NCBI GenBank assembly: GCA_900543095.1
Contig: UQQD01000001.1
Coordinates: 41,836 to 105,835 of the forward strand
Direction: 5' to 3'
From: an uncultured Ruminococcus sp.
Lineage (GTDB): Bacteria > Bacillota > Clostridia > Oscillospirales > Acutalibacteraceae
DNA: 64,000 nt
Shown here piece after piece: positions 6,075 through 63,243 of this stretch. The translations under genes were made by a program, and so were the position numbers. How positions within the stretch are numbered: position 1 is the first letter of the stretch; each line of letters opens with the position of its first letter. The notes beneath the pieces were generated by a model. That model saw nothing but the letters and a program-made list of their open reading frames with translations. It searched no databases and had not been told where the DNA came from.

Positions 6075-6184
6075 GTGAATATCACTCCATATATAAAATA
6101 TTATATCTATATTACTATAATTCTTTTAAATAATTATTACATATAAGAAAAAAGAATAAAAAGATTGAAAAATATCGGCATAAA

Positions 6185-6290
6185 TGTTATAATCTAAGTA
6201 CAGTTGACGCTCTTTTGCAACGGTTGCAATTTGTCGCAAGCTTCAACCATGCAAGAAAACCGTAGCATTGCTCAGATTTGAATAATTTAA
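6185..6290 (+). repeat. Family-1 modular intergenic element, copy A (extended -10 + CTAAGTACAG ... TTGCAATTTGTCGCAAGC ... TTGCTCAGATTTGAAT)
   Basis: Contains the conserved 5' box TGTTATAATCTAAGTACAG, the core palindrome and the 3' box. Lies upstream of the ClpP-like gene. Confidence 0.7.
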
Positions 6291-26892: not shown

Positions 26893-26930
26893 AATCCGGA
26901 CGAACAGTTTAGCTTGCTCGTCCGGATTTT
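26893..26930 (+). terminator. Rho-independent terminator
   Basis: ATCCGGACGA...TCGTCCGGAT followed by TTTT. Confidence 0.65.
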
Positions 26931-26987
26931 ATCAATTTGTTCTGTAATATAATTGTAATTATTCTTTTGTTGAATTTTAGCTTGAAT

Positions 26988-27168
26988 GTGTTATAATCTA
27001 AGTGCAGATGTCACCCGTCTTTTAGGCGGGTGACATCTCAGGATTTCAGTGGGAGTTATAATCTCCCACTAAAATCCTGAGGAGCTAAAGCTCCTTTGCA
27101 CTGCTTGCAATCTGTCGCAGGCTTTGCTCCTTGCAAGCAAAGCAAAGCCTTGCTCCGATTTAAATTAT
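26988..27168 (+). repeat. Family-1 modular element, copy B (full-length, 4 hairpins), acting as the nrdR leader
   Basis: TGTGTTATAATCTAAGTGCAG, then P1, P2, GGAGCTAAAGCTCC and GCTTGCAATCTGTCGCAGGC, ending in TTGCTCCGATTTAAAT 26 nt before nrdR. Confidence 0.75.
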
Positions 27169-27195
27169 TTTATAAAAAATACAGAGGTGATCCGT

Positions 27196-27654
27196 ATGAA
27201 ATGTCCATACTGCGGCTATGAAGAAAGCAAAGTAATCGACTCAAGGTCGGCTGACGACGGAGAACGCATACGCAGAAGACGTGAATGTCTTAAATGCGGT
27301 AAGCGCTTTACTACTCACGAAGTAATTGAAACAGTGCCGATAATCGTAGTTAAGCGTGACAAGTCAAGAGAGGTTTTTGACCGCAATAAGCTCACAGCGG
27401 GAATATTGCGTGCCTGCGAAAAACGCCCTGTATCAATTCAGCAGATAGAGTCAATGGTTGATGAAATTGAGGCAAAGATACAAAGCAGTCTTGACCGTGA
27501 GGTCACAACAATGCAAATCGGTGAGCTTGCAATGGAACAGCTTAAGAATGTTGATGAGGTTTCATATGTTCGCTTTGCGTCTGTTTATCGCCAGTTTAAG
27601 GATATAAACACCTTTATGGATGAGCTTAACAAACTGCTCACCGAAAAGAAATAA
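27196..27654 (+). CDS. nrdR: Transcriptional repressor NrdR
   Basis: MKCPYCG zinc ribbon followed by an ATP-cone domain. Confidence 0.9.
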
Positions 27655-27800
27655 TCTAAGTGCAGATGGTCCTCGACTCTTAGGAGTCGAGGATCAATTC
27701 AAGGTGTCAGAGGGAGTTATATCTACCTCTGACACCTTGAGGAGCTGACGCTCCTTTGCACTGTTTGCAATCTGTCGCAAGCTTTGCTCCGACTTAAATG
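27649..27800 (+). repeat. Family-1 modular element, copy C (begins at the nrdR stop codon)
   Basis: AAATAATCTAAGTGCAG, P1 and P2 with altered but complementary stems, then GGAGCTGACGCTCC, TTGCAATCTGTCGCAAGC and TTGCTCCGACTTAAAT. Confidence 0.75.
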
Positions 27801-27923
27801 TTTCGCACTTTCATTTAATGTATATTATACTTATGTAAAGTATGCGGGCGATGTTTTTTCGCTCTTAGGTTATATATTCTTTAATAATAGTCAGCAAATA
27901 AGTATAAAAAAACAAATCCTATG

Positions 27924-27987
27924 GATAATATCTAAGTGCAGGCTCTGCTTCCTGTAAGCAAAGCAGAGCGTTGCCCCGATTTAAATT
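27924..27987 (+). repeat. Family-1 element, copy D (minimal: 5' box + terminal hairpin + 3' box)
   Basis: GATAATATCTAAGTGCAG, then GGCTCTGCTT...AAGCAGAGC and TTGCCCCGATTTAAAT, 26 nt before the 74-aa ORF. Confidence 0.7.
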
Positions 27988-28012
27988 ATAATCAGAATGA
28001 AAGGGCTATCTA

Positions 28013-28237
28013 ATGAAAATATATTCAATCACATATGACAAGGTTTTAAATCTGAAACGAGCCGCCGCAGAAAAATTCACTGACAAAATTCATTTTCACG
28101 ATGCCTGCGGAGGTCAGTATTTTAACCTTGAAACGCCGAACGAGGAGCTTCAAAAGTTCATAGTGGATTATTTTGAAGGACAGGGAATAGCGGCTGTATT
28201 TTCTGAGGATAATATGAATTTTCATCTTGCTAAATAA
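28013..28237 (+). CDS. Hypothetical 74-aa protein
   Basis: ORF with an RBS-like AAAGGG, flanked by element copies D and E. No family was recognised. Confidence 0.4.
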   Translation: MKIYSITYDKVLNLKRAAAEKFTDKIHFHDACGGQYFNLETPNEELQKFIVDYFEGQGIAAVFSEDNMNFHLAK

Positions 28238-28326
28238 TAATCTATGGAGCTAAAGCTCCTTTGCACCGCTTGCAATCTGTCGCAAGCGGTGCTTTTTGCA
28301 GGCAAAACATTGCTCCGATTTAAATG
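28236..28326 (+). repeat. Family-1 element, copy E (5'-truncated: starts at the GGAGCTAAAGCTCC module)
   Basis: ATAATCTATGGAGCTAAAGCTCCTTTGCACCGCTTGCAATCTGTCGCAAGCGGTGC...TTGCTCCGATTTAAAT. Confidence 0.7.
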
Positions 28327-28426
28327 ATATATTTGATAAAGCACTTTAATAAATCCGATTATTGTGGTATAATGATTATGCAGGAATGACGTGAAAGTAT
28401 AAATATATAACAAACGGAGGTAAAAT

Positions 28427-31084
28427 GTGAAAAAAATTAAAAAAATATTTGCTGTATTTTCAGTAATTGCAGTCATAGGGTGCACTTCTGTTTTTAATGT
28501 CGGAGCGGCATCCGTTTCCGATGGAATAAAGGGTGACATTCAGGCAGTAGAAACAAATGATACCGAAGCAGAAGTAACAGCAGAAATTAAAAATTCAAAT
28601 TATTATGCTATCGATGACATTAACTACAAACTTACTGTTTCTGATAATGCAGAAATAGTCGGTGAAAGTCAAAAGAACGGTATTACTCTTTCGGAAAACG
28701 AAAGCGATTCAATGAATACAAAAGTTGCCCTCAAATCAAAGGCAGATCAAAAAGCTTCGGAAACTGTCCCCACAGAAAATCAGGGTATAACATCTGCCAC
28801 ATCTGCAACCGAAAAAGCCGTAACGGTTAAACAGCCGCAGAGCACAGACAACGGAACTGTTAAAACAGGAAATGCTTCTTCTTTCACAATCACTTTGTCT
28901 GTAGTTATTCTCTTTGTCGCACTCTTAATAATTATCTTGAAAATGCGTGGCAAAAAGGCTTTGATGTCGTTAGTTCTTACAGCAACTCTTACCGTATCCT
29001 GCACGGCTGTCGGTATCAGCACAATTTCAGCAAATGCGGCTGAGGAGTATTCCTGTTTTACGGATGTTTCAGAAATAAAAATCGGAAACGAAAGCGTTAC
29101 GATAACGCTCACAGTCGAATATCCGAAGCAGGCAGAAATTCACGATAACACTCTTGCCGACATTCAGAAACTTAACAATAATCAAGCCGAGGTTATTATT
29201 AATGAAGACGGTGAGATTACTTTTATAAGCGGTAAATTCACGGATTACAAGGTTACAAATGTCGATACTGCTTTTTCCTCACTTCAGGCGGTTGAAACCT
29301 TGTTGGGAGCGGATACATACGACTTTACTCTGCTTCCCGTAAAAACAAATGTAGATACAATCACAGGCGATACATATTATAACTTTGAACAATTTTACAA
29401 CAACTATGCAATAAGTTCTTCGTATGTTGTCGTCGGTGCAGATAAAGACGGCAATACAATTTCTGTTGCAAGCTCACTTGAAAAAAATCTTTCAGATGAA
29501 TTGATCGGAGTTGACACATCAAAGCTTATTTCTTCGGATGATGCAATAAACACGGCTTTAAAGGCTTTGCCTAATCTGGAACTTTCCGAAGTAAGAAATC
29601 CTGAACTTGTGATTGATTCGGATTTCAAAAGATACTGTTGGTATGTATATGTCAACAACCATGGATTGGAGGGCAGTGCTACCGAAAGCTTCAGTTACCT
29701 CAAAATTACCGTTGACGCAGTAAATGGTGAATTTTTATCATACGCCCCATTGTCCTCGATTGAAAGTGATAATACCGAAAGCTATGATGCAGACCTGTAT
29801 TTTAAGAATATAAAAACCGAAATGATGGACTATACTGCGGCAGACGGTTCAACAGTTCAACTCCCAACAACTAAAAAGGCAAACGGAAAATATCAGATTA
29901 TTGATACGGAACGAAAAATATATACAGCTGAGCCTCTTGATACGGAGATGAGCAATCTTCTTACCGCAGGAGCATACACTTTTGACAGCCCGGAAGATGT
30001 CCCCGAAAATGTTGTTTCGTTTGTTGACAACATTATTAAAACATATGATTATTTCAAATCAAAGGGCATAACTTCAACCGACGGAAACGGTGTTCCGATA
30101 AAAATATATATGGGATACTACAAAGCATCAGACGGTCAGGAAGTGGCAAATGCCGTAGCCATAGGCAATGCATTCGGCTTCAGCTCATTTATATGCAGCA
30201 ACACTCCTGTTTCAAGATCGCTTGATGTTGCGGCACACGAATACACACATTCATTCAGAGTTGCGGCAATAGGCTCAATGACTTATAGTAATATAACAGG
30301 AGCCTTAGAAGAATCTTATGCCGACATAATGGGTAATCTAACGGAGATGTCAATCAACCCCGAGGGCTGCGATACCGAAAACTGGCTTGTCGGTGAAAGC
30401 AGATTAGGCACAGCAATCAGATCAATGTCAAATCCGGAAGCTTACTGTCAGCCGTCATCGGTCGGCGGTCCGTACTTCTATTATTCGGGGGATGTACTGT
30501 CACAAAGCCTTGATAACGGAGGAGTACACATCAACAGCGGTGTCCTGAATAACATAGCTTTCAACACTTACCAAAAATCTGACTATTCATATGACGAATG
30601 GTTCGACATTTGGCTTAATTCATGCTATGCGGGAGTTGCAGATTTCAATCTGAATGATGTAAGAGGATATGTAAGGCACATTGCAAAGCGACACGCTCTT
30701 AATGAACTTTACGATTTATTTGAGCAAGAATTCATAAACGCAAATGCAGTAAACACAGATACTTTAAAATGGAACGGCTTCCAAAACTTTGAGGGTTACA
30801 AGAAAGCCCAAATAACAGTCAATAATTTACCCTCAGACTGTGATATTTACGGAGTTATAGCTGTGAATCTTGAAAAATCAGACAACACAGTTAAGCTTCT
30901 GCTGCAAAACAGCGGTAAGAATATGTTGTGCAAGGAATACGATATTGTCGGTCAATCAACGCTTACAATTGTTTGTCAGAGAACGGTTGACAATAAAACA
31001 GAGTTATCGTATTTCCGCAAAACCTTTGAGAAAAACGAAGATTTGTCAAATATAACCGTAGATTACAGCGAATTTATAAGCTAA
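28427..31084 (+). CDS. M4 (thermolysin-like) zinc metallopeptidase. It has an N-terminal surface module, an internal sorting-signal-like TM, and a second signal-peptide-like segment
   Basis: GTG start with GGAGG RBS. HEYTH zinc motif plus ExxxD (EESYADIMG). An internal VKTGN + TM + KMRGKK, followed by a signal-peptide-like segment ending in ANA, at aa 150-205. Confidence 0.7.
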   Translation: MKKIKKIFAVFSVIAVIGCTSVFNVGAASVSDGIKGDIQAVETNDTEAEVTAEIKNSNYYAIDDINYKLTVSDNAEIVGESQKNGITLSENESDSMNTKVALKSKADQKASETVPTENQGITSATSATEKAVTVKQPQSTDNGTVKTGNASSFTITLSVVILFVALLIIILKMRGKKALMSLVLTATLTVSCTAVGISTISANAAEEYSCFTDVSEIKIGNESVTITLTVEYPKQAEIHDNTLADIQKLNNNQAEVIINEDGEITFISGKFTDYKVTNVDTAFSSLQAVETLLGADTYDFTLLPVKTNVDTITGDTYYNFEQFYNNYAISSSYVVVGADKDGNTISVASSLEKNLSDELIGVDTSKLISSDDAINTALKALPNLELSEVRNPELVIDSDFKRYCWYVYVNNHGLEGSATESFSYLKITVDAVNGEFLSYAPLSSIESDNTESYDADLYFKNIKTEMMDYTAADGSTVQLPTTKKANGKYQIIDTERKIYTAEPLDTEMSNLLTAGAYTFDSPEDVPENVVSFVDNIIKTYDYFKSKGITSTDGNGVPIKIYMGYYKASDGQEVANAVAIGNAFGFSSFICSNTPVSRSLDVAAHEYTHSFRVAAIGSMTYSNITGALEESYADIMGNLTEMSINPEGCDTENWLVGESRLGTAIRSMSNPEAYCQPSSVGGPYFYYSGDVLSQSLDNGGVHINSGVLNNIAFNTYQKSDYSYDEWFDIWLNSCYAGVADFNLNDVRGYVRHIAKRHALNELYDLFEQEFINANAVNTDTLKWNGFQNFEGYKKAQITVNNLPSDCDIYGVIAVNLEKSDNTVKLLLQNSGKNMLCKEYDIVGQSTLTIVCQRTVDNKTELSYFRKTFEKNEDLSNITVDYSEFIS

Positions 31085-31087
31085 TAA

Positions 31088-31172
31088 AAAGCCGCACAGC
31101 AATCCACCCAAAACAGTTAGCATTTAGCTTAACTTTTGCGGAGTAGGTAACGCTGTGCGGTTTTTATTTTAT
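31088..31172 (+). terminator. Terminator (long hairpin + T-run)
   Basis: GCCGCACAGC...GCTGTGCGG followed by TTTTTATTTT. Confidence 0.5.
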
Positions 31173-31298
31173 CTTGCGACTTAACAATATAGGCGCATTG
31201 ACCGTTTGTTAGGCAAATCAAATCCTCGGGGTAGGTTTCGACCTGACAGCAGATTTTTACCGCACCTACAATAATTTTAGGAATTGATTTTTCAGTAT

Positions 31299-31341: not shown

Positions 31342-31944
31342 TTATTCAGGATTATTTTCCGTTGCAGTCGGCTCATTGGACTGAGCAGGTTGTTGTACCG
31401 ATGGTTGTTCAACAGTTTGTTGAGTCGGTTGCTGAACAGGCTGCTGGATTGGTTGCTGTGCAGGCTGTTGTATAGGCTGCTGAACAGGTTGCTGGATTGG
31501 TTGCTGTGCAGGCTGTTGTATAGGTTGCTGAACAGGCTGTTGTATAGGCTGTTGCATCGGTTGCTGCATAGGCTGCTGAACAGCATTTTGCGGAATTTCG
31601 CCGACTCTGTATTCAAGACGGTGCCTTAAAGGCTTGTGGCACTTCGGACAATAAACAAAGCCGTGCGGATACCATGCGCGATAACCGAGATCTTTAGTTC
31701 TGTACTCAAAGGTGCAAAGACAATATTCGCACTGAACCCTAAAAACGGGATCGGGGGTGTTAATTACGTTTACTCCGCCCTGAGTATATGTGACCTGAGG
31801 CGTACCGTTCTGAGGATACGGTGCTGCTTGAGGTGCAGGATTTTGTTGTGTGTTTGGTGCAGCCTGAAAAACAGGGGTGCCGCACTTGCTGCAAAATCTG
31901 TCTTGCGGATCAATCTGATTGCCGCATTTTGTGCAAAAACTCAT
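31342..31944 (-). CDS. Zinc-ribbon protein with QQP(I/V/A/M) tandem repeats and a second Cys-rich ribbon
   Basis: N-terminal CxxC...CxxC, a 12-fold QQPxQQPx repeat, and C-terminal CEYCLC...CPKC. Confidence 0.5.
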   Translation of the reverse strand: MSFCTKCGNQIDPQDRFCSKCGTPVFQAAPNTQQNPAPQAAPYPQNGTPQVTYTQGGVNVINTPDPVFRVQCEYCLCTFEYRTKDLGYRAWYPHGFVYCPKCHKPLRHRLEYRVGEIPQNAVQQPMQQPMQQPIQQPVQQPIQQPAQQPIQQPVQQPIQQPAQQPIQQPVQQPTQQTVEQPSVQQPAQSNEPTATENNPE

Positions 31945-32130: not shown

Positions 32131-32290
32131 ATGATTTTAACCGGAGCAACTTTCTTATTTGTTTGCAGGTCAGAGCCTGCGACAGACTGCAAACAGTGCA
32201 GGTAGCATTATTCTCTCAGGTTTTCAGAGGAAGGTATCTGTATTTAGGCCATTATCGCCACTGATATATGCTCTTAGGTTATATTTATGC
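32131..32290 (-). repeat. Family-1 modular element, copy J (minus strand, upstream of the 31944 zinc-ribbon gene, antisense to the plus-strand leader)
   Basis: Reverse complement reads AAATATAACCTAAGAGCAT ... TGCACTGTTTGCAGTCTGTCGCAGGCTC ... TTGCTCCGGTTAAAATCAT. Confidence 0.6.
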
Positions 32291-48608: not shown

Positions 48609-49139
48609 ATGATTTGTCCTAATTGCGGAAATCAAATTGCAGACGGTACAGCTTTCTGCACAAACTGCGGCACACAGCTGAATAATGCTGCTCCCGAACA
48701 GCCTGCTCAGAATTATCAGCAGCCGGTTCAAAATTACCAACAACCGGCTCAGAGCTACCAACAGCCTGCTCAAAACTATCAGCAGCCGGTTCAAAACTAT
48801 CAACAGCCGGTTCAAAACTATCAACAGCCGGTTCAGCCTACGCTTATGAACGCAGAGAACCCTACTGCCGGCAAGGCTCTTGCACTCGGTATTGTTTCAC
48901 TTTGCCTTTGCTGGTTGCCTGTTGCAAGCATTATACTCGGCATATTCGCAATAAAAGCAGGTAATGAAACGCTTGCATATTCCAATCAGGGCTACAACAA
49001 ACGTCCGATGGGAATTATCGCAAAGATATTCGGTATCGTAAGTATAATTGTTTGTTCAATAATGACAATTTATTGGTTAATATTTATTATTGCTATTTGC
49101 GTTGCCGGCTCATACGCCACAACTTACTACTACTATTAA
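48609..49139 (+). CDS. Zinc-ribbon protein with QNYQQP(V/A) repeats and C-terminal DUF4190-like membrane domain
   Basis: CPNCG...CTNCG, a 7-fold repeat, and two TM helices. It is a paralog of the 31342-31944 protein. Confidence 0.55.
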   Translation: MICPNCGNQIADGTAFCTNCGTQLNNAAPEQPAQNYQQPVQNYQQPAQSYQQPAQNYQQPVQNYQQPVQNYQQPVQPTLMNAENPTAGKALALGIVSLCLCWLPVASIILGIFAIKAGNETLAYSNQGYNKRPMGIIAKIFGIVSIIVCSIMTIYWLIFIIAICVAGSYATTYYYY

Positions 49140-51222: not shown

Positions 51223-52248
51223 ATGAAGAAAAAGCTTTTAAGTTTAATTCTTGCAGGTTCTGTTGTGGCTTCAATGGCTGCAATAGCAACAACAAGTGCA
51301 TCTGCTATTGTTGACACAGACGGCACTTATAAACCCGGTGAGGGTATCAAAACAAAGAGAGTTTATTTTACATTGCCTGACGTCTGGAAAAACTCTTACA
51401 CAAATTCAGCCGGCTGTTATTGGTGGGGCGGTACTGACCCTTGCAGCTCTATTGACGGCGGCGTTGGCGAACTTAGTTGGCCGGGATACAAGGCAAAATA
51501 TGATTCAAGCCTTGAAGAGAAGGGTGTTAAAACACTTTATTATCTTGATATTCCCGATGATGTTCCTACAGTAGTTTGGAACAACTACCTTGACGGCGGT
51601 TTGGATGTGACTGCTCCGCAGTATACAGCCGCTATGCAGTGTGAAGATTCAAAGTGTGAGTATATGTCAGAAGGCGATAGGGAGACTTATGATAATCAGG
51701 AAGGTTTCTGGACAGAGATGGAAGACAGCTTCAATGGTGATAAGGCTGCTCTCGGCGATTTTGCCGATAACTTCTTTATGAGTGAATACGGTATTGCTTT
51801 CACAATGAATAATATGATTTGGGTTCCTGATCTTAGTAGTGAGCCTTCTACTTCAGTAACCGGTCAGTTAACTTATTTCGGCGAATGGTACTTCTACTAT
51901 AATGACGGTACATATGGTACATACCCAACAAAGGAAGCAGCTCAGGCAAAGGGCACAGTCGGCGATCTTACAGTTGCTCCCGCTCCACCGGCAACAAAAG
52001 ATGAAGCAGATACAACAAACCCAACAAACCCAGCAAACCCAAAAGATACTGATCCGCAGACAACAGTTCCGGGTGAACCTTCAACCGATGCTACTTCTGC
52101 AGTAAATAAATCAACATCTGATACTACAAAGTCATCTGATAATACTTCAATCAAGACAGGCGCAGCTTCACTTGCAGTTGTTCTTCTTGTTGTTCTTTCA
52201 GGCGTAGCTACAGTTGCTTACTTTACTCGCAAGAAATATGATAAATAA
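51223..52248 (+). CDS. Secreted surface protein with Thr/Pro-rich stalk and C-terminal SIKTG sorting-signal-like anchor
   Basis: Signal peptide. TTNPTNPANP linker. IKTG + 21-aa hydrophobic segment + RKKYDK tail. Confidence 0.5.
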   Translation: MKKKLLSLILAGSVVASMAAIATTSASAIVDTDGTYKPGEGIKTKRVYFTLPDVWKNSYTNSAGCYWWGGTDPCSSIDGGVGELSWPGYKAKYDSSLEEKGVKTLYYLDIPDDVPTVVWNNYLDGGLDVTAPQYTAAMQCEDSKCEYMSEGDRETYDNQEGFWTEMEDSFNGDKAALGDFADNFFMSEYGIAFTMNNMIWVPDLSSEPSTSVTGQLTYFGEWYFYYNDGTYGTYPTKEAAQAKGTVGDLTVAPAPPATKDEADTTNPTNPANPKDTDPQTTVPGEPSTDATSAVNKSTSDTTKSSDNTSIKTGAASLAVVLLVVLSGVATVAYFTRKKYDK

Positions 52249-52276
52249 GTTTGCTGATTCCTTATAGGTAATGCTT

Positions 52277-52305
52277 AAAACGCTCCCGATTTTGGGAGCG
52301 TTTTT
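52277..52305 (+). terminator. Rho-independent terminator
   Basis: AAAACGCTCCCGATTTTGGGAGCG followed by TTTTT. Confidence 0.7.
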
Positions 52306-52383
52306 GCGTATATGATTTAAATTTAGCGGTAAATATGTACAGATACCCTCGTTCTTCTTCATATTACTTGATTTTTAGTGCCT

Positions 52384-52503
52384 GTTATATTATAATCTAA
52401 GTACAGATGTCCTTCGCCGATTAGGCAGAGGGTTGTTATATCAGGGCTTGCAATCTGTCGCAAGCCTTGCTTCTTGTGAGTAAAGCGTTGCTCCGATTTA
52501 AAC
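52384..52503 (+). repeat. Family-1 modular element, copy F, acting as leader of the 52544 gene
   Basis: TGTTATATTATAATCTAAGTACAG, a P1-like hairpin, GGCTTGCAATCTGTCGCAAGCC, and TTGCTCCGATTTAAAC. Confidence 0.7.
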
Positions 52504-52543
52504 TACGATGAATTAATATGGAATGATATTGGAGGAAAAGGTA

Positions 52544-53602
52544 ATGTCAAAAAAAGCAGTTAGTTTTGTTTTGGCAATTATGCTTACGGTTACAATGATA
52601 ACCGTAACGGCTCTTTGCGTATATGCCGAATCAGATGACGATGCCTATGACAACACAGCTTTTTCAGATTATCAGCTTTCGGATAATGCTTTTGAGGGAG
52701 AGCCGCAAGCCGAGCCGTCGGAAACATCGGCAACGGAGGCGAGTACGGATTCTGTAAACGGCAAATATCCGAATTTAACGGTGAATGCAATTTCAAACTA
52801 TTTTCCAAGAGCAGCTGCCGAATACAATTCAACCACAAAAGAAGTAACGGTTACCTATTGGTTAAACCTTTCAAAAAACATTCTTAACACTCAGTGGTAT
52901 ATAACATACGATTCAAGCGTGCTTTCGGTCTCCAACAGAAAAAACACGCCTGCATCTGTATGTCCGACTGTCGGTGCAAACGGAAGTCTTGATTTGAGCG
53001 AGGAAAACATCATAAATTATACCGCAACAAATATGAGATTGTTTGATTTTACTTCTCAAATGGTTCCCTTTGCAAAGATAGTATTTGATGTAGATGATTT
53101 GCAAAACGACAGTGCCGTTACAACAACCATAGATCTTACCGTTGATGTATTGAGGGTGTCGAAAGCAGATTCGAATACGTTGCTGTCGGCTGACAGCGAG
53201 GAAGTCAGCCTTGTAAATAATTGTGAAATAGCAAAAAATCAGCAAACATCCTTAATTGATGTTGATTACAAAACCACATTGACAATATCTAACTATGTTG
53301 CACCGACTACGGCAGAAAATACCAAGAAAAGCACTGATGATGAAAGCAATACTCAACAAGACTCAACCGATGTTTCTGTTGAACCGTCCGAGCAGTCATC
53401 CCAGCCATCTGAAACTGACGCAACCTCAAAAATCGACAGCTCAAATTCCGTTCCTTCCGAAACAGCTCCGCCAAATGTCGGAGCGGGGCAGACTAACGCT
53501 GTTGTTAATACGGGCGATACTTATCTCGCTCTGATATTCCTTTGCGTTCAGATATTTGCAACGGGAGTTTTGTTTGTAATGCGTAAAAAGGAAATGTATT
53601 AA
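52544..53602 (+). CDS. Secreted cohesin-like surface protein with C-terminal VNTGD sorting-signal-like anchor
   Basis: Signal peptide. The QWYITYDSSVLSV pattern resembles the cohesin G..F.L.YD..L pattern. Ser/Thr-rich linker. NTGD + TM + RKKEMY. Confidence 0.45.
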   Translation: MSKKAVSFVLAIMLTVTMITVTALCVYAESDDDAYDNTAFSDYQLSDNAFEGEPQAEPSETSATEASTDSVNGKYPNLTVNAISNYFPRAAAEYNSTTKEVTVTYWLNLSKNILNTQWYITYDSSVLSVSNRKNTPASVCPTVGANGSLDLSEENIINYTATNMRLFDFTSQMVPFAKIVFDVDDLQNDSAVTTTIDLTVDVLRVSKADSNTLLSADSEEVSLVNNCEIAKNQQTSLIDVDYKTTLTISNYVAPTTAENTKKSTDDESNTQQDSTDVSVEPSEQSSQPSETDATSKIDSSNSVPSETAPPNVGAGQTNAVVNTGDTYLALIFLCVQIFATGVLFVMRKKEMY

Positions 53603-63128: not shown

Positions 63129-63134
63129 TGTTTG

Positions 63135-63233
63135 TTTAAATCTGAGCAACGCTTGCGGTACTTGCGCTGTTTGTAATCTGGTCGCAAGCTCTGCACTTTG
63201 CAGGTAAAGCAAAGCCTTGCTCCGATTTAAATT
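63135..63233 (+). repeat. Family-1 element, copy G (diverged 5' box)
   Basis: AATCTGAGCAACG ... TTTGTAATCTGGTCGCAAGC ... AAAGCAAAGCC TTGCTCCGATTTAAAT. Confidence 0.6.
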
Positions 63234-63243
63234 CGATAAAAAA

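Follow-up and report, generated by a model that had tools for sequence, protein, structure and literature searches.

The 64,000-nucleotide stretch of an uncultured Ruminococcus sp. contig analyzed here (the window) carries eight copies of a structured intergenic repeat, interspersed over 57 kb with housekeeping genes (nrdR, a ClpP-family gene, and others) and present on both strands. A covariance model was built from 58 units, mostly of other genomes, and a cmsearch of the window with filters off returned exactly these eight copies, all with E <= 3e-11, while the next independent match had E = 0.06. A sequence-only reading of the same DNA had described a modular, structured intergenic family of eight copies at the same positions or within a few bases of them, and both the family and its members were confirmed. 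The core 20-mer occurred six times in the window at up to three mismatches (0.01 expected), the 3' box (C box) nine times (1.8 expected), and CTAAGTGCAG in five copies at up to one mismatch; the same families were recovered by an unbiased repeat finder.

The ancestral unit is ~175 nt long and runs from a 5' edge, (T/A)ATAAC-CTAAGCGCAG, through a closing stem (P1) around the hairpins H1-H3 to the core (TTGCAATCTGTCGCAAGC), a terminal hairpin, and the C box (TTGCTCCGATTTAAA). P1 and its hairpins form a cloverleaf-like four-way junction; H1, H2, and H3 differ from one another, and none of them occurs more than once per unit. Core and C box, 36 bases together, are invariant, unpaired positions included, as are the left edge, (T/A)ATAA, and the right edge, TTTAAA. 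The core consists of two 6-bp inverted arms (GCTTGC and GCAAGC) with an 8-bp spacer, and in half of the family GGTTGC replaces GCTTGC and breaks this palindrome (column 123). Either the 5' edge or the C box can serve as an alternative pairing partner of the core, and the AAC(C) of the left edge pairs with an internal GGTT, covarying as AATC/GATT in loci L116 and L021. Complementarity between the A box and the C box is weak, comprising mainly AATC/GATT and a few further pairs, and only copy 7 and locus L028 have a clean inverted C box of 16 nt at their 5' end, canonical copies having none. The unit itself contains neither a -35 nor a terminator. Copies range from 60 to 180 nt, and the eight in the window are decayed or internally deleted versions of this one unit.

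Four copies lie around nrdR on the plus strand. Copy 1 (26992..27167; 189.7 bits) is full length, with TATAAT, A box, P1, H1-H3, core, terminal hairpin, and C box, and folds at a minimum free energy (MFE) of -85.5 kcal/mol (z = -10.45); the nrdR ATG (27196) lies 31 nt past its end. A promoter-like site at 26970..26997 (plus strand) combines TTGAAT in the flank, a 16-nt spacer, and TGtTATAAT (promoter scan 10/12 plus TG), its -10 being the first six bases of copy 1. Copy 2 (27650..27801; 124.3 bits) retains A box, P1, H1-H3, core, and C box (MFE -76.5 kcal/mol, z = -9.35); its H1 and H2 are unlike those of copy 1 in sequence with the pairing kept, and its AATAAT shares bases with the nrdR stop codon (27652-27654). 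Copy 3 (27926..27988, model match 27873-27988; 42.2 bits) is a short form in which the A box is fused to the terminal hairpin and C box; its sequence suggests that the interior was deleted between two GCAG repeats, and a 74-aa ORF starts 27 nt past its end. Copy 4 (28236..28327, model match 28153-28327; 64.2 bits) comprises a 5' stub, AATAATCTA, which is a reduced A box overlapping the stop codon of the 74-aa ORF, followed by H3, the core hairpin, and the C box. With a core hairpin lengthened to 11 bp and a TTTTT after it, this copy has a terminator-like site (28263-28292), which makes the variant look like an intrinsic terminator.

The remaining copies are further dispersed. Copy 5 (6188..6285, plus strand; 52.2 bits) is degenerate, with A box, H3 remnant, core, variant terminal hairpin, and C box; it is preceded by a -35-like TTGAAA (6165-6170) 17 nt before its TGtTATAAT and lies 128 nt before the ClpP-family gene. 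Copy 6 (52391..52505, plus strand; 64.4 bits) retains the A box, a degenerate H1, the core, the terminal hairpin, and the C box; a -35-like TTGATT (52368-52373) precedes its TATAAT by 17 nt, and the copy lies 41 nt before a 352-aa gene. Both copies are fixed in all strains compared. Copy 7 (63134..63234, plus strand; 58.9 bits) has an inverted C box, GTTTAAATCTGAGCAA, in place of the A box, then a degenerate core, terminal hairpin, and C box, and folds whole as one long hairpin (-37.9 kcal/mol, z = -3.6). Its position is between a stop codon and the terminator of the same gene, with a convergent gene facing it; it is fixed in strains and missing at the orthologous site of L128, the syntenic contig of a related organism. 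Copy 8 (32132..32283, minus strand; 55.7 bits) is a degenerate full-length copy 189 nt upstream of a co-oriented gene for a Zn-ribbon protein and was found in all strains examined (boxes in L002-L010).

The sequence-only reading had assigned a 5' box with an extended -10 (TGnTATAAT), a palindromic core, a terminal hairpin, and a 3' box to every copy, and this was borne out in full for the C box alone, which is present in 8/8. The extended -10 is limited to copies 1 and 5; copy 6 has TATTATAAT, and in copies 2-4 an AATAAT or GATAAT stands without a TG. Of the 5' box, the stub alone is left at 28236; the minus-strand copy has a degenerate version of it, and at 63134 its place is taken by an inverted C box. 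Likewise, the core is missing at 27926 and interrupted by an insertion at 63170, and the terminal hairpin is missing in copy 2 and of different sequence at 28236, 6188, and 52391.

The Rfam search was predicted to give no match, and none was found: at gathering thresholds Rfam 15 returned 0 matches over the whole window, and noise was all that E-value mode gave over the interval 26900-28400, the top match reaching 23 bits against a gathering score of 100. A self-cleaving ribozyme or tRNA-like element was considered from a CUGAGGA seen by eye beside H3 and rejected, as neither GAAA nor any other hammerhead core accompanies it and Rfam gave no match.

Genome searches placed the unit in Ruminococcus bromii and related gut Clostridia, spanning many genera. 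We know of no interspersed repeat family described for R. bromii or its relatives, which act as keystone species of starch breakdown in the guts of humans and animals. At least about 75 loci were detected by the genome scan, spread over at least about 36 gut Clostridia genomes at species level and including at least 24 in one MAG, with the C box ~45 nt past the core at all Clostridia loci; among the matches listed, ~35 fell in other phyla, consisting of the core only and numbering as chance predicts. By cmsearch, ~88 copies were found in 79 loci, and solo A boxes in the loci were about as numerous as by chance. The copies have a GC content of ~52% whatever that of the host (34-55%), and mean identity of units is 83% between genomes and 0.89-0.94 within one genome. 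The family is not a local duplication, the possibility that the sequence-only reading had set against its own proposal, since covariance-model and genome searches find the unit in many related genomes.

The fold is conserved along with the sequence. Paired cells amounted to 92.5% compared to 35-43% with partners slid, and double changes were found in 22 pairs, with 0/500 shuffles reaching the observed values. Covariation extends over P1 (double changes in 4/4 pairs), H2, H3, and the terminal hairpin, and the stems are kept by compensatory changes between sub-lineages. These properties would be expected of a selected cis-acting RNA module, every copy of which works in its mRNA (5' leader or 3' UTR) and is kept by site-wise selection, for instance as exonuclease stabilizer, RNase processing site, or translational modulator. 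This reading, rather unlikely in our judgment, can also draw on the strong folds of copies 1 and 2 (z = -10.4 and -9.3), on a single consensus G.U pair at the foot of H1 that is readable on the given strand only, on the alternative pairings of the core, which could form a switch, and on the fixation of all dispersed copies within the species. With that one consensus pair set aside, however, the strand test had no significance, A.C mismatches (66) being nearly as common as G.U (81; p = 0.25), so that single changes look unselected, as neutral decay of copies predicts. In addition, whole domains have been lost in many copies, and the most invariant bases sit in a loop and an unpaired box, which speaks for sequence recognition more than for RNA shape.

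Genomic context bears on the same question. None of 85 copies lies inside a long ORF; the repeat is always intergenic, and within operons copies fit tightly between the stop codon of one gene and the start codon of the next, a placement consistent with function in the transcript, as is the orientation of 50 copies with the downstream gene vs 29 against (63% of 79; p = 0.02). This mild co-orientation could reflect the direction of transcription or replication, and the other 29/79 copies (37%), antisense to the adjacent gene, face away from the next gene or into its 3' end. A search for a regulon, in the form of a recurrent protein family among 147 neighboring proteins, found none. The proposal that the elements constitute a cis-regulatory RNA shared by unrelated genes is not supported as a general reading, given the orientations and neighbors without a common family.

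A minority of copies carries promoter signals. The 5' hexamer is TATAAC or AATAAC in 44/58 full-length copies (76%), and this ...AAC majority lacks the final T of a -10 and has -35 or TG in the flank at background level. A TTG-type -35 at 16-18 nt accompanies ...AAT copies at 8/11 unique loci compared to 1/60 for ...AAC (p = 1.3e-7), TGn is found upstream at 4/11 vs 4/60, and 11/12 ...AAT copies have a co-oriented SD sequence and start codon within 28-214 nt. The hexamer ending in T is the rule in the R. bromii lineage, with window copies 1, 5, and 6 as examples, and on these signals the ...AAT subclass probably has a promoter-and-leader role. A C-to-T change at the last hexamer base, combined with a flanking -35, would turn the edge of the element into the -10 of a housekeeping gene, so that the ...TATAAT hexamer would serve the downstream promoter and the folded element would become the mRNA leader. 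Such co-option may have affected the copies at nrdR, the ClpP-family gene, and the 352-aa gene in the window, and that at lepA in R. bromii ATCC 27255. The description of the elements as portable promoter-plus-leader modules is accordingly retained for the T-ending subclass (copies 1, 5, and 6) and is not supported for the family as a whole, given the 44/58 hexamers with background flanks.

That copies of the R. bromii lineage begin with TATAAT, several with a -35 in the flank, might also suggest an independently transcribed family of trans-acting sRNAs with its own promoter at each A box, but this is scarcely credible: the unit has no -35 or terminator, 76% of full-length copies begin with TATAAC or AATAAC in background flanks, and, because a gene starts 28-214 nt past the promoter-type copies, their transcripts would be leaders rather than separate genes.

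Variation between strains was found in the arrangement of copies. Units occur in head-to-tail arrays of 1-3 units, 168-171 nt each, in which the C box overlaps the next A box, and array size varies between strains with identical NrdR. The breakpoints of deletion variants coincide with the feet of hairpins or with CTGA/GCAG repeats. Copies also recombine with each other: a 42-bp direct repeat of H3 plus core (27741..27782, second copy 28246-28287, plus strand), compared by blastn against L002, L003, and L004 and with junction sequences, brackets a 505-bp segment containing copy 3 and the 74-aa ORF, and strains without this segment carry one hybrid element instead. The copies in the window's species are old and fixed, varying only in array size and through such inter-copy recombination.

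The 505-bp segment with its ORF, bracketed by H3-plus-core repeats and missing from other strains, raises a DNA-level alternative in which the core and TTGC motifs bind a recombinase or nucleoid protein and the copies are cassette crossover points resembling integron or dif sites. The inverted arms and spacer of the core, the invariance of core and C box even where unpaired, and an indel in the M4 protease gene that begins 4-5 nt past a C box are in line with it. We nevertheless regard it as highly improbable: the 42-bp repeat would by itself allow ordinary homologous recombination, the far side of the M4 indel is free of any element, copies of either orientation are scattered among housekeeping genes rather than arrayed by an integrase, and GGTTGC breaks the core palindrome in half of the family. 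An integron attC/cassette array, whose sites would share one orientation beside an integrase and each follow a promoterless cassette, was likewise rejected: no integrase was found near the window copies, these occupy both strands over 57 kb, and 42 bp of homology would be enough to account for the 505-bp segment.

Taken over the family, these results make it moderately probable that the repeat is a non-autonomous, highly structured interspersed DNA repeat with a co-opted subset, not a dedicated cis-regulatory RNA. The family would have spread by transposition-like amplification driven by a factor in trans that recognizes the invariant core and C box, probably in a folded single strand; the invariance of these two sequences points to such a trans-acting partner. 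After insertion, most copies would be neutral passengers, co-transcribed into UTRs. As expected of MITEs, the repeat is small, non-coding, multi-copy, intergenic, and highly base-paired (z to -10; 8 copies in 64 kb). Neither a target-site duplication, nor presence/absence polymorphism, nor a parent IS with matching ends was found in the flanks, strains, loci, plasmids, and phages covered. The 83% inter-genus identity, invariant loop bases, and covarying junction exceed those of most MITEs, and a functional RNA would also fit them.

Searches for traces of movement covered sites, flanks, and possible vectors. Dispersed copies 5-8 showed no empty/filled polymorphism within the window's species in all strains retrieved, and exact-protein look-ups and members of the protein clusters brought up strains whose intergenic lengths at copies 5, 6, and 7 were the same. 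A metagenome scan with the flanking protein yielded distant relatives on short contigs only and no empty site; the only absence seen is that from the syntenic contig L128, which belongs to a distant relative. Inspection of the flanks of ~20 near-identical copies from one genome, RGIG9115, revealed no variable target-site duplication, and since no variable flank match was seen, any duplication would be confined to the constant ATAA...TAAA edges. Neither the ~0.9 Mb of loci examined nor plasmids nor phages yielded a transposase or longer parent element: the plasmid search for a parent element or vector returned nothing, the phage search one partial copy on an unverified fecal contig of bacterial appearance, and the IMG/VR search one chance match only, inside a coding region. 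With neither a transposase nor a target duplication nor an empty site detected, the mobility of the family is inferred.

Weak terminal inverted repeats and the lack of a visible target duplication would also suit a remnant or ORF-less derivative (PATE) of an HUH/Y1 single-strand transposon of the IS200/IS605 type, which might keep an omega-RNA-like scaffold. Insertion would then occur 3' of a fixed T(A/T)TAA without inverted repeats or duplication, the hairpins being transposase sites on one strand. The invariant edges agree with this, the right end of one copy forming the left context of the next in arrays, as do the covarying hairpins near both ends and the orientation bias, with 7/8 window copies co-oriented with the strand of positive GC skew and 16/20 pairs of neighboring copies in the same orientation. 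Omega-RNA scaffolds have a size and multi-stem architecture in the range of the repeat unit. IS200/IS605 ends carry similar hairpins, whereas the 5' and 3' hairpins of the unit are unlike each other, and no TnpA or TnpB was seen beside any copy. The pairing of AAC(C) with GGTT, with its covariation, makes the left edge look like part of the element rather than flank, and an Rfam match to HEARO or other transposon RNAs is absent; derivation from such a transposon is distinctly unlikely.

Some of the same features could be accommodated if the unit were the cis element of an unrecognized mobility or guide system in gut Clostridia, whose trans protein recognizes the junction and the core/C-box hairpin, although we hold this to be unlikely. 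Recognition would be as single-stranded DNA or RNA, with insertion beside T(A/T)TAA and without inverted repeats or duplication. As T(A/T)TAA includes -10 boxes and TAA stops, such insertion would explain the overlap of copies with stop codons and -10 boxes, and the system itself would explain the cross-genus conservation and the precise head-to-tail arrays.

A non-autonomous interspersed repeat has close counterparts among known families. The bcr1 element of the Bacillus cereus group (~155 bp) is likewise intergenic, of similar size, from Firmicutes, present in many copies per genome, and without an assigned transposase; it has a cruciform or multi-stem fold with compensatory changes, and its copies lose stability with time (PMC3184786). 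In bcr1, 5-bp direct repeats flank the element and positions differ between close strains, whereas the repeat described here has no detected duplication, dispersed copies fixed in the species, and a range of many genera; no sequence resemblance to bcr1 was found by inspection. The likeness to BOX and Correia elements noted in the sequence-only reading is apt. Pneumococcal BOX elements share conserved 5' and 3' modules that can pair around an optional middle, and are now dormant, co-transcribed with neighbors, and able to stimulate downstream expression (PMC3049150). The module layout sets the present family apart from BOX, since boxA/boxC with tandem identical boxB modules was not found: the BOX middle is a tandem boxB array compared to three distinct hairpins, each present once or deleted, within a covarying stem. 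Tandem arrays are of modules in BOX and of whole units here, and the host clade differs, as the sequence probably does. Neisseria Correia elements are also small, structured, and intergenic, and their ends together with flanking DNA create promoters and alter adjacent expression (PMC2649163). Unlike Correia elements, whose terminal inverted repeats are clear and 26 bp long and which duplicate a TA target (PMC3049150), the repeat shows weak end complementarity and no detected duplication. ERIC (enterobacterial repetitive intergenic consensus, ~127 bp) resembles it in conservation across genera, an imperfect-palindrome fold, internal deletion and insertion variants, the lack of an assigned mobilizing enzyme, and an effect on mRNA when transcribed (PMC3184786), but is a single long hairpin of Proteobacteria as opposed to a four-way junction plus long 3' hairpin of Clostridia.

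Literature searches by sequence string and keyword found no description of the repeat; the R. bromii repeat of the DIVE paper is a CRISPR repeat and hence a different entity. The family is previously undescribed, and its kind is already known (BOX, Correia, ERIC, and bcr1 type). Being conserved and multi-copy, a unit of ~175 nt would account for assembly breaks and for structural differences between strains, such as arrays and inter-copy recombination. The repeat should be masked in searches for non-coding RNAs, and where copies have been co-opted, host mRNAs would carry a very stable structured leader. It also offers a handle for strain typing, as BOX and ERIC do in PCR typing.

A structured intergenic element of about 175 nt was present in eight window copies: copies 1 to 4 at 26992-27167, 27650-27801, 27926-27988, and 28236-28327, copies 5 to 7 at 6188-6285, 52391-52505, and 63134-63234 (all on the plus strand), and copy 8 on the minus strand at 32132-32283. 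The complete unit consists, 5' to 3', of a hexamer with the A box, a stem P1 enclosing hairpins H1 to H3, a core, a terminal hairpin, and a C box. The boxes named in the sequence-only reading exist in the window sequence in numbers far exceeding chance, with six occurrences of the 20-nt core (<=3 mismatches) against 0.01 expected, nine of the C box against 1.8 expected, and CTAAGTGCAG in five copies (<=1 mismatch); the same families were recovered by an unbiased repeat finder. An unfiltered search of the window with a covariance model of 58 full-length units, mostly from other genomes, returned exactly the eight copies listed in that reading, all at E <= 3e-11; the following independent match scored E = 0.06. 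As the reading had anticipated, Rfam 15 gave no match across the entire window at gathering thresholds, and its E-value mode returned only noise for 26900-28400. Its description of boxes common to all copies did not hold, as for each of the A box, core, and terminal hairpin there are copies that lack it or have it in degenerate form, the C box is the sole box present in 8/8, and the TGnTATAAT ascribed to every copy was seen only in copies 1 and 5. Judged by their sequences, the short copies are internal-deletion derivatives with both ends kept: in copy 3 the A box and terminal hairpin meet at a GCAG repeat, copy 4 retains AATAATCTA and then H3 onward, and copy 6 retains only H1 of H1-H3. An inverted C box replaces the A box in copy 7, for which the predicted fold is one long hairpin. 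In copy 4 the core hairpin has been lengthened to 11 bp with TTTTT after it, fitting a terminator pattern.

The element is a conserved, covarying fold. Folding energies were -85.5 kcal/mol for copy 1 (z = -10.45) and -76.5 kcal/mol for copy 2 (z = -9.35), both with a predicted four-way junction in which closing stem P1 (AGUGCAG/UUGCACU) surrounds H1-H3, followed 3' by the core hairpin, terminal hairpin, and C box. Between these copies the sequences of H1 and H2 diverge while pairing is kept. Pair counts on the alignment of the 58 units gave standard pairs in 92.5% of cells compared to 35-43% with the 3' partners slid by 1-3 columns, changes on both sides in 22 pairs, and 0/500 shuffles reaching the observed pairing values. 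Double changes were identified in 4/4 pairs of P1 (GCGC/GCGC, GUGC/GCAC, GCAC/GUGC, ACGC/GCGU, AUGC/GCAU, and GUAC/GUAC), seven pairs of H2, three of H3, and four of the terminal hairpin. The core and C box are uninformative on pairing because both are invariant, and a local hairpin, core-C box pairing, and pairing of GGTT with 5' AACC are mutually exclusive options. At alignment column 123 the family falls into two types, GGTTGC and GCTTGC. In copy 1, the H2 loop (GTTATAATCT, 27056-27065) shares a 10-nt identity with the element's own 5' edge (26989-26998), and the T-W-T-A-A-W common family-wide to the H2 loop (GTTATAATC), 5' edge (TATAAC/TC), and 3' edge (TTTAAAT) could be a recognition motif. 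The HGM11514 sub-lineage (loci L046, L050, L062, L067, and L112) has a further small hairpin, GTGACCAAGGGGTCAGAC, placed directly 3' of AGATGT at the base of H1, and modules are therefore gainable as well as losable.

The element is multi-copy, intergenic, and spread over many genera. A degenerate core 20-mer, scanned against one genome per species, matched at least 114 stretches, and the search of relatives suggested in the sequence-only reading found the element in many other Clostridia genomes. Gut and rumen Clostridia accounted for ~75 of the stretches among the matches listed, with carriers including R. bromii ATCC 27255, Ruminococcoides intestinale, Ruminococcus sp. YE282, Ructibacterium, Candidatus Ornithomonoglobus, and many MAGs. 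All ~75 listed Clostridia stretches have a C box ~45 nt 3' of the core, and usually an A box ~112 nt 5' of it; the ~35 listed matches from high-GC phyla comprise the core alone, in a number expected by chance. Among the matches listed, cmsearch identified ~88 copies at 79 loci, and MAG RGIG9115 held at least 24 loci. Element GC is ~52% irrespective of host GC (34% to 55%), and mean identity is 0.89-0.94 within genomes compared to 0.83 between genomes. The element was not found in PLSDB plasmids or IMG/VR, and a phage collection yielded a single short-form copy, its carrier being an unverified, bacterial-looking contig of faecal origin. At another locus with the element (L119, 4426-4738), two incomplete copies stand back to back, one with seemingly foreign sequence in its H2 loop, which may represent a nested insertion.

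The relationship of the copies to genes and their pattern of decay point to a dispersed repeat. No copy lies inside a long ORF (0/85), and orientation is only mildly biased, with 50 co-oriented against 29 opposed downstream genes and 46 against 26 upstream genes (p = 0.02). In many copies the 5' edge falls 4 nt inside the upstream ORF, such that the gene's TAA stop sits in the element's ATAA(C/T), and no recurrent family was found among 147 neighbouring proteins. With one consensus G.U pair excluded, G.U mismatches (81) were similar in number to A.C mismatches (66; p = 0.25), as for neutral decay of inserted copies and not a selected strand-specific RNA. The endpoints of deletion variants coincide with short direct repeats or the feet of hairpins. 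The likeness to BOX and Correia elements suggested earlier was upheld, both being among the closest analogues together with bcr1 and ERIC (PMC3184786, PMC3049150, PMC2649163). The element works like these four and is a member of none, lacking the 5-bp direct repeats of bcr1, the tandem boxB array of BOX, and the 26-bp inverted repeats of Correia. Its cross-genus conservation and four-way junction are unusual for such repeats, and 8 million full texts, also queried with sequence strings, yielded no description of it; it is a previously undescribed repeat of the same kind.

Strain comparison around nrdR, which lies between copies 1 and 2, showed that copies form arrays and recombine. The window NrdR has an identical protein in human-gut metagenome assemblies (92 index blocks of the collection), and these strains carry one, two, or three head-to-tail units of 168-171 nt upstream of nrdR, where the C box overlaps the following A box (GATTTAAATCTAAGTG) and units inside one array are mutually diverged with compensatory differences in H1. 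Downstream of nrdR are found one element, two tandem elements, or, as in the window, a 505-bp segment carrying copy 3 and a 74-aa ORF and flanked on both sides by direct repeats of 42 bp (H3 plus core). In strains with a single downstream element, that element combines window copies 2 and 4 as a hybrid, and copies therefore recombine with each other. The 74-aa ORF (28013-28237) has no Pfam match, occurs only in the window and strain locus L003, and its stop codon overlaps the initial bases of copy 4. Among identical-NrdR strains, a 2,968-bp stretch with the M4 protease gene (window 28330-31297) is polymorphic for presence or absence: the window, L002, L005-L008, and L010 have it, and L003, L004, and L009 lack it. 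The stretch breaks at GATA(T/C)| and |AAAAATG, its start lying 4-5 nt past a C box; since the far end has no element, this is treated as adjacency to the C box only. The protease (885 aa, 28427-31084) has its own TTGTGGTATAAT promoter. Copies 5, 6, 7, and 8 were fixed in every strain retrieved, and a syntenic contig of a related organism (~75% identity) has a plain terminator at the copy 7 site and no element found in its 14.8 kb. A 12-nt periodic coding repeat (31378-31595) lies within a Zn-ribbon protein gene (31342-31944, minus strand) whose product measures 176, 184, 188, 192, or 200 aa by strain, which suggests that the repeat expands and contracts. The ORF at 48609-49139 contains another periodic coding repeat, with a 21-nt period and at least five units (Q-Q-P-x-Q-N-Y-like; 48697-48843).

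Spread would be driven by a trans-supplied factor reading the invariant core and C box, with most copies presumably co-transcribed passively. No empty site within a species was seen among the strains retrieved, and no parent element was found in the loci examined, plasmids, or phages. A single-strand (IS200/IS605-like) mechanism is possible, as inspection of the flanks of ~20 near-identical RGIG9115 copies revealed no target duplication, the T(A/T)TAA edges are fixed, head-to-tail junctions are precise, neighbouring copies share orientation in 16/20 cases, and 7/8 window copies lie on the positive-GC-skew strand; however, the end hairpins do not resemble one another and the loci examined showed no partner gene. 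Only in copy 7 and at locus L028 are the terminal inverted repeats more than weak.

The proposal of a portable promoter plus leader stood for a minority of copies. Among the 58 full-length units the 5' hexamer is TATAAC in 36 and AATAAC in eight (together 44/58) and TATAAT in six, and the repeat unit itself contains no -35 and no terminator. When the flanks of 76 A boxes were scored, a TTG-type -35 at 16-18 nt accompanied 8/11 unique ...AAT loci compared to 1/60 ...AAC copies (Fisher p = 1.3e-7), with TGn in 4/11 and 4/60, respectively. The mean -35 score was 3.56 for all 16 ...AAT copies and 2.37 for ...AAC copies, the latter being at background given a control mean of 2.50. The signal persisted in ...AAT loci outside the R. 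bromii group alone (4/6, p = 1e-4), and the only ...AAT copy retrieved from HGM11514 has TTGACA-16-AATAAT. A co-oriented Shine-Dalgarno and start codon followed 28-214 nt downstream in 11/12 ...AAT cases, compared to a split of 32 to 20 for ...AAC copies. On these sequence criteria, the ...AAT subclass has a promoter-like context and was probably co-opted as a -10 box and structured leader, and most members of the family lack a promoter; Correia elements offer a documented precedent for such co-option (PMC2649163). Candidate promoters include TTGAAT-16-TGtTATAAT in copy 1 (nrdR), TTGAAA-17-TGtTATAAT in copy 5 (a ClpP-family gene), TTGCTT-16-TGtTATAAT in R. bromii ATCC 27255 (lepA), and TTGATT-17-TATAAT in copy 6 (a 352-aa gene). 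The genes flanking copy 6 (51223-53599) encode 341 and 352 aa, both without a Pfam match, and the 352-aa product has a signal-peptide-like N-terminal start.
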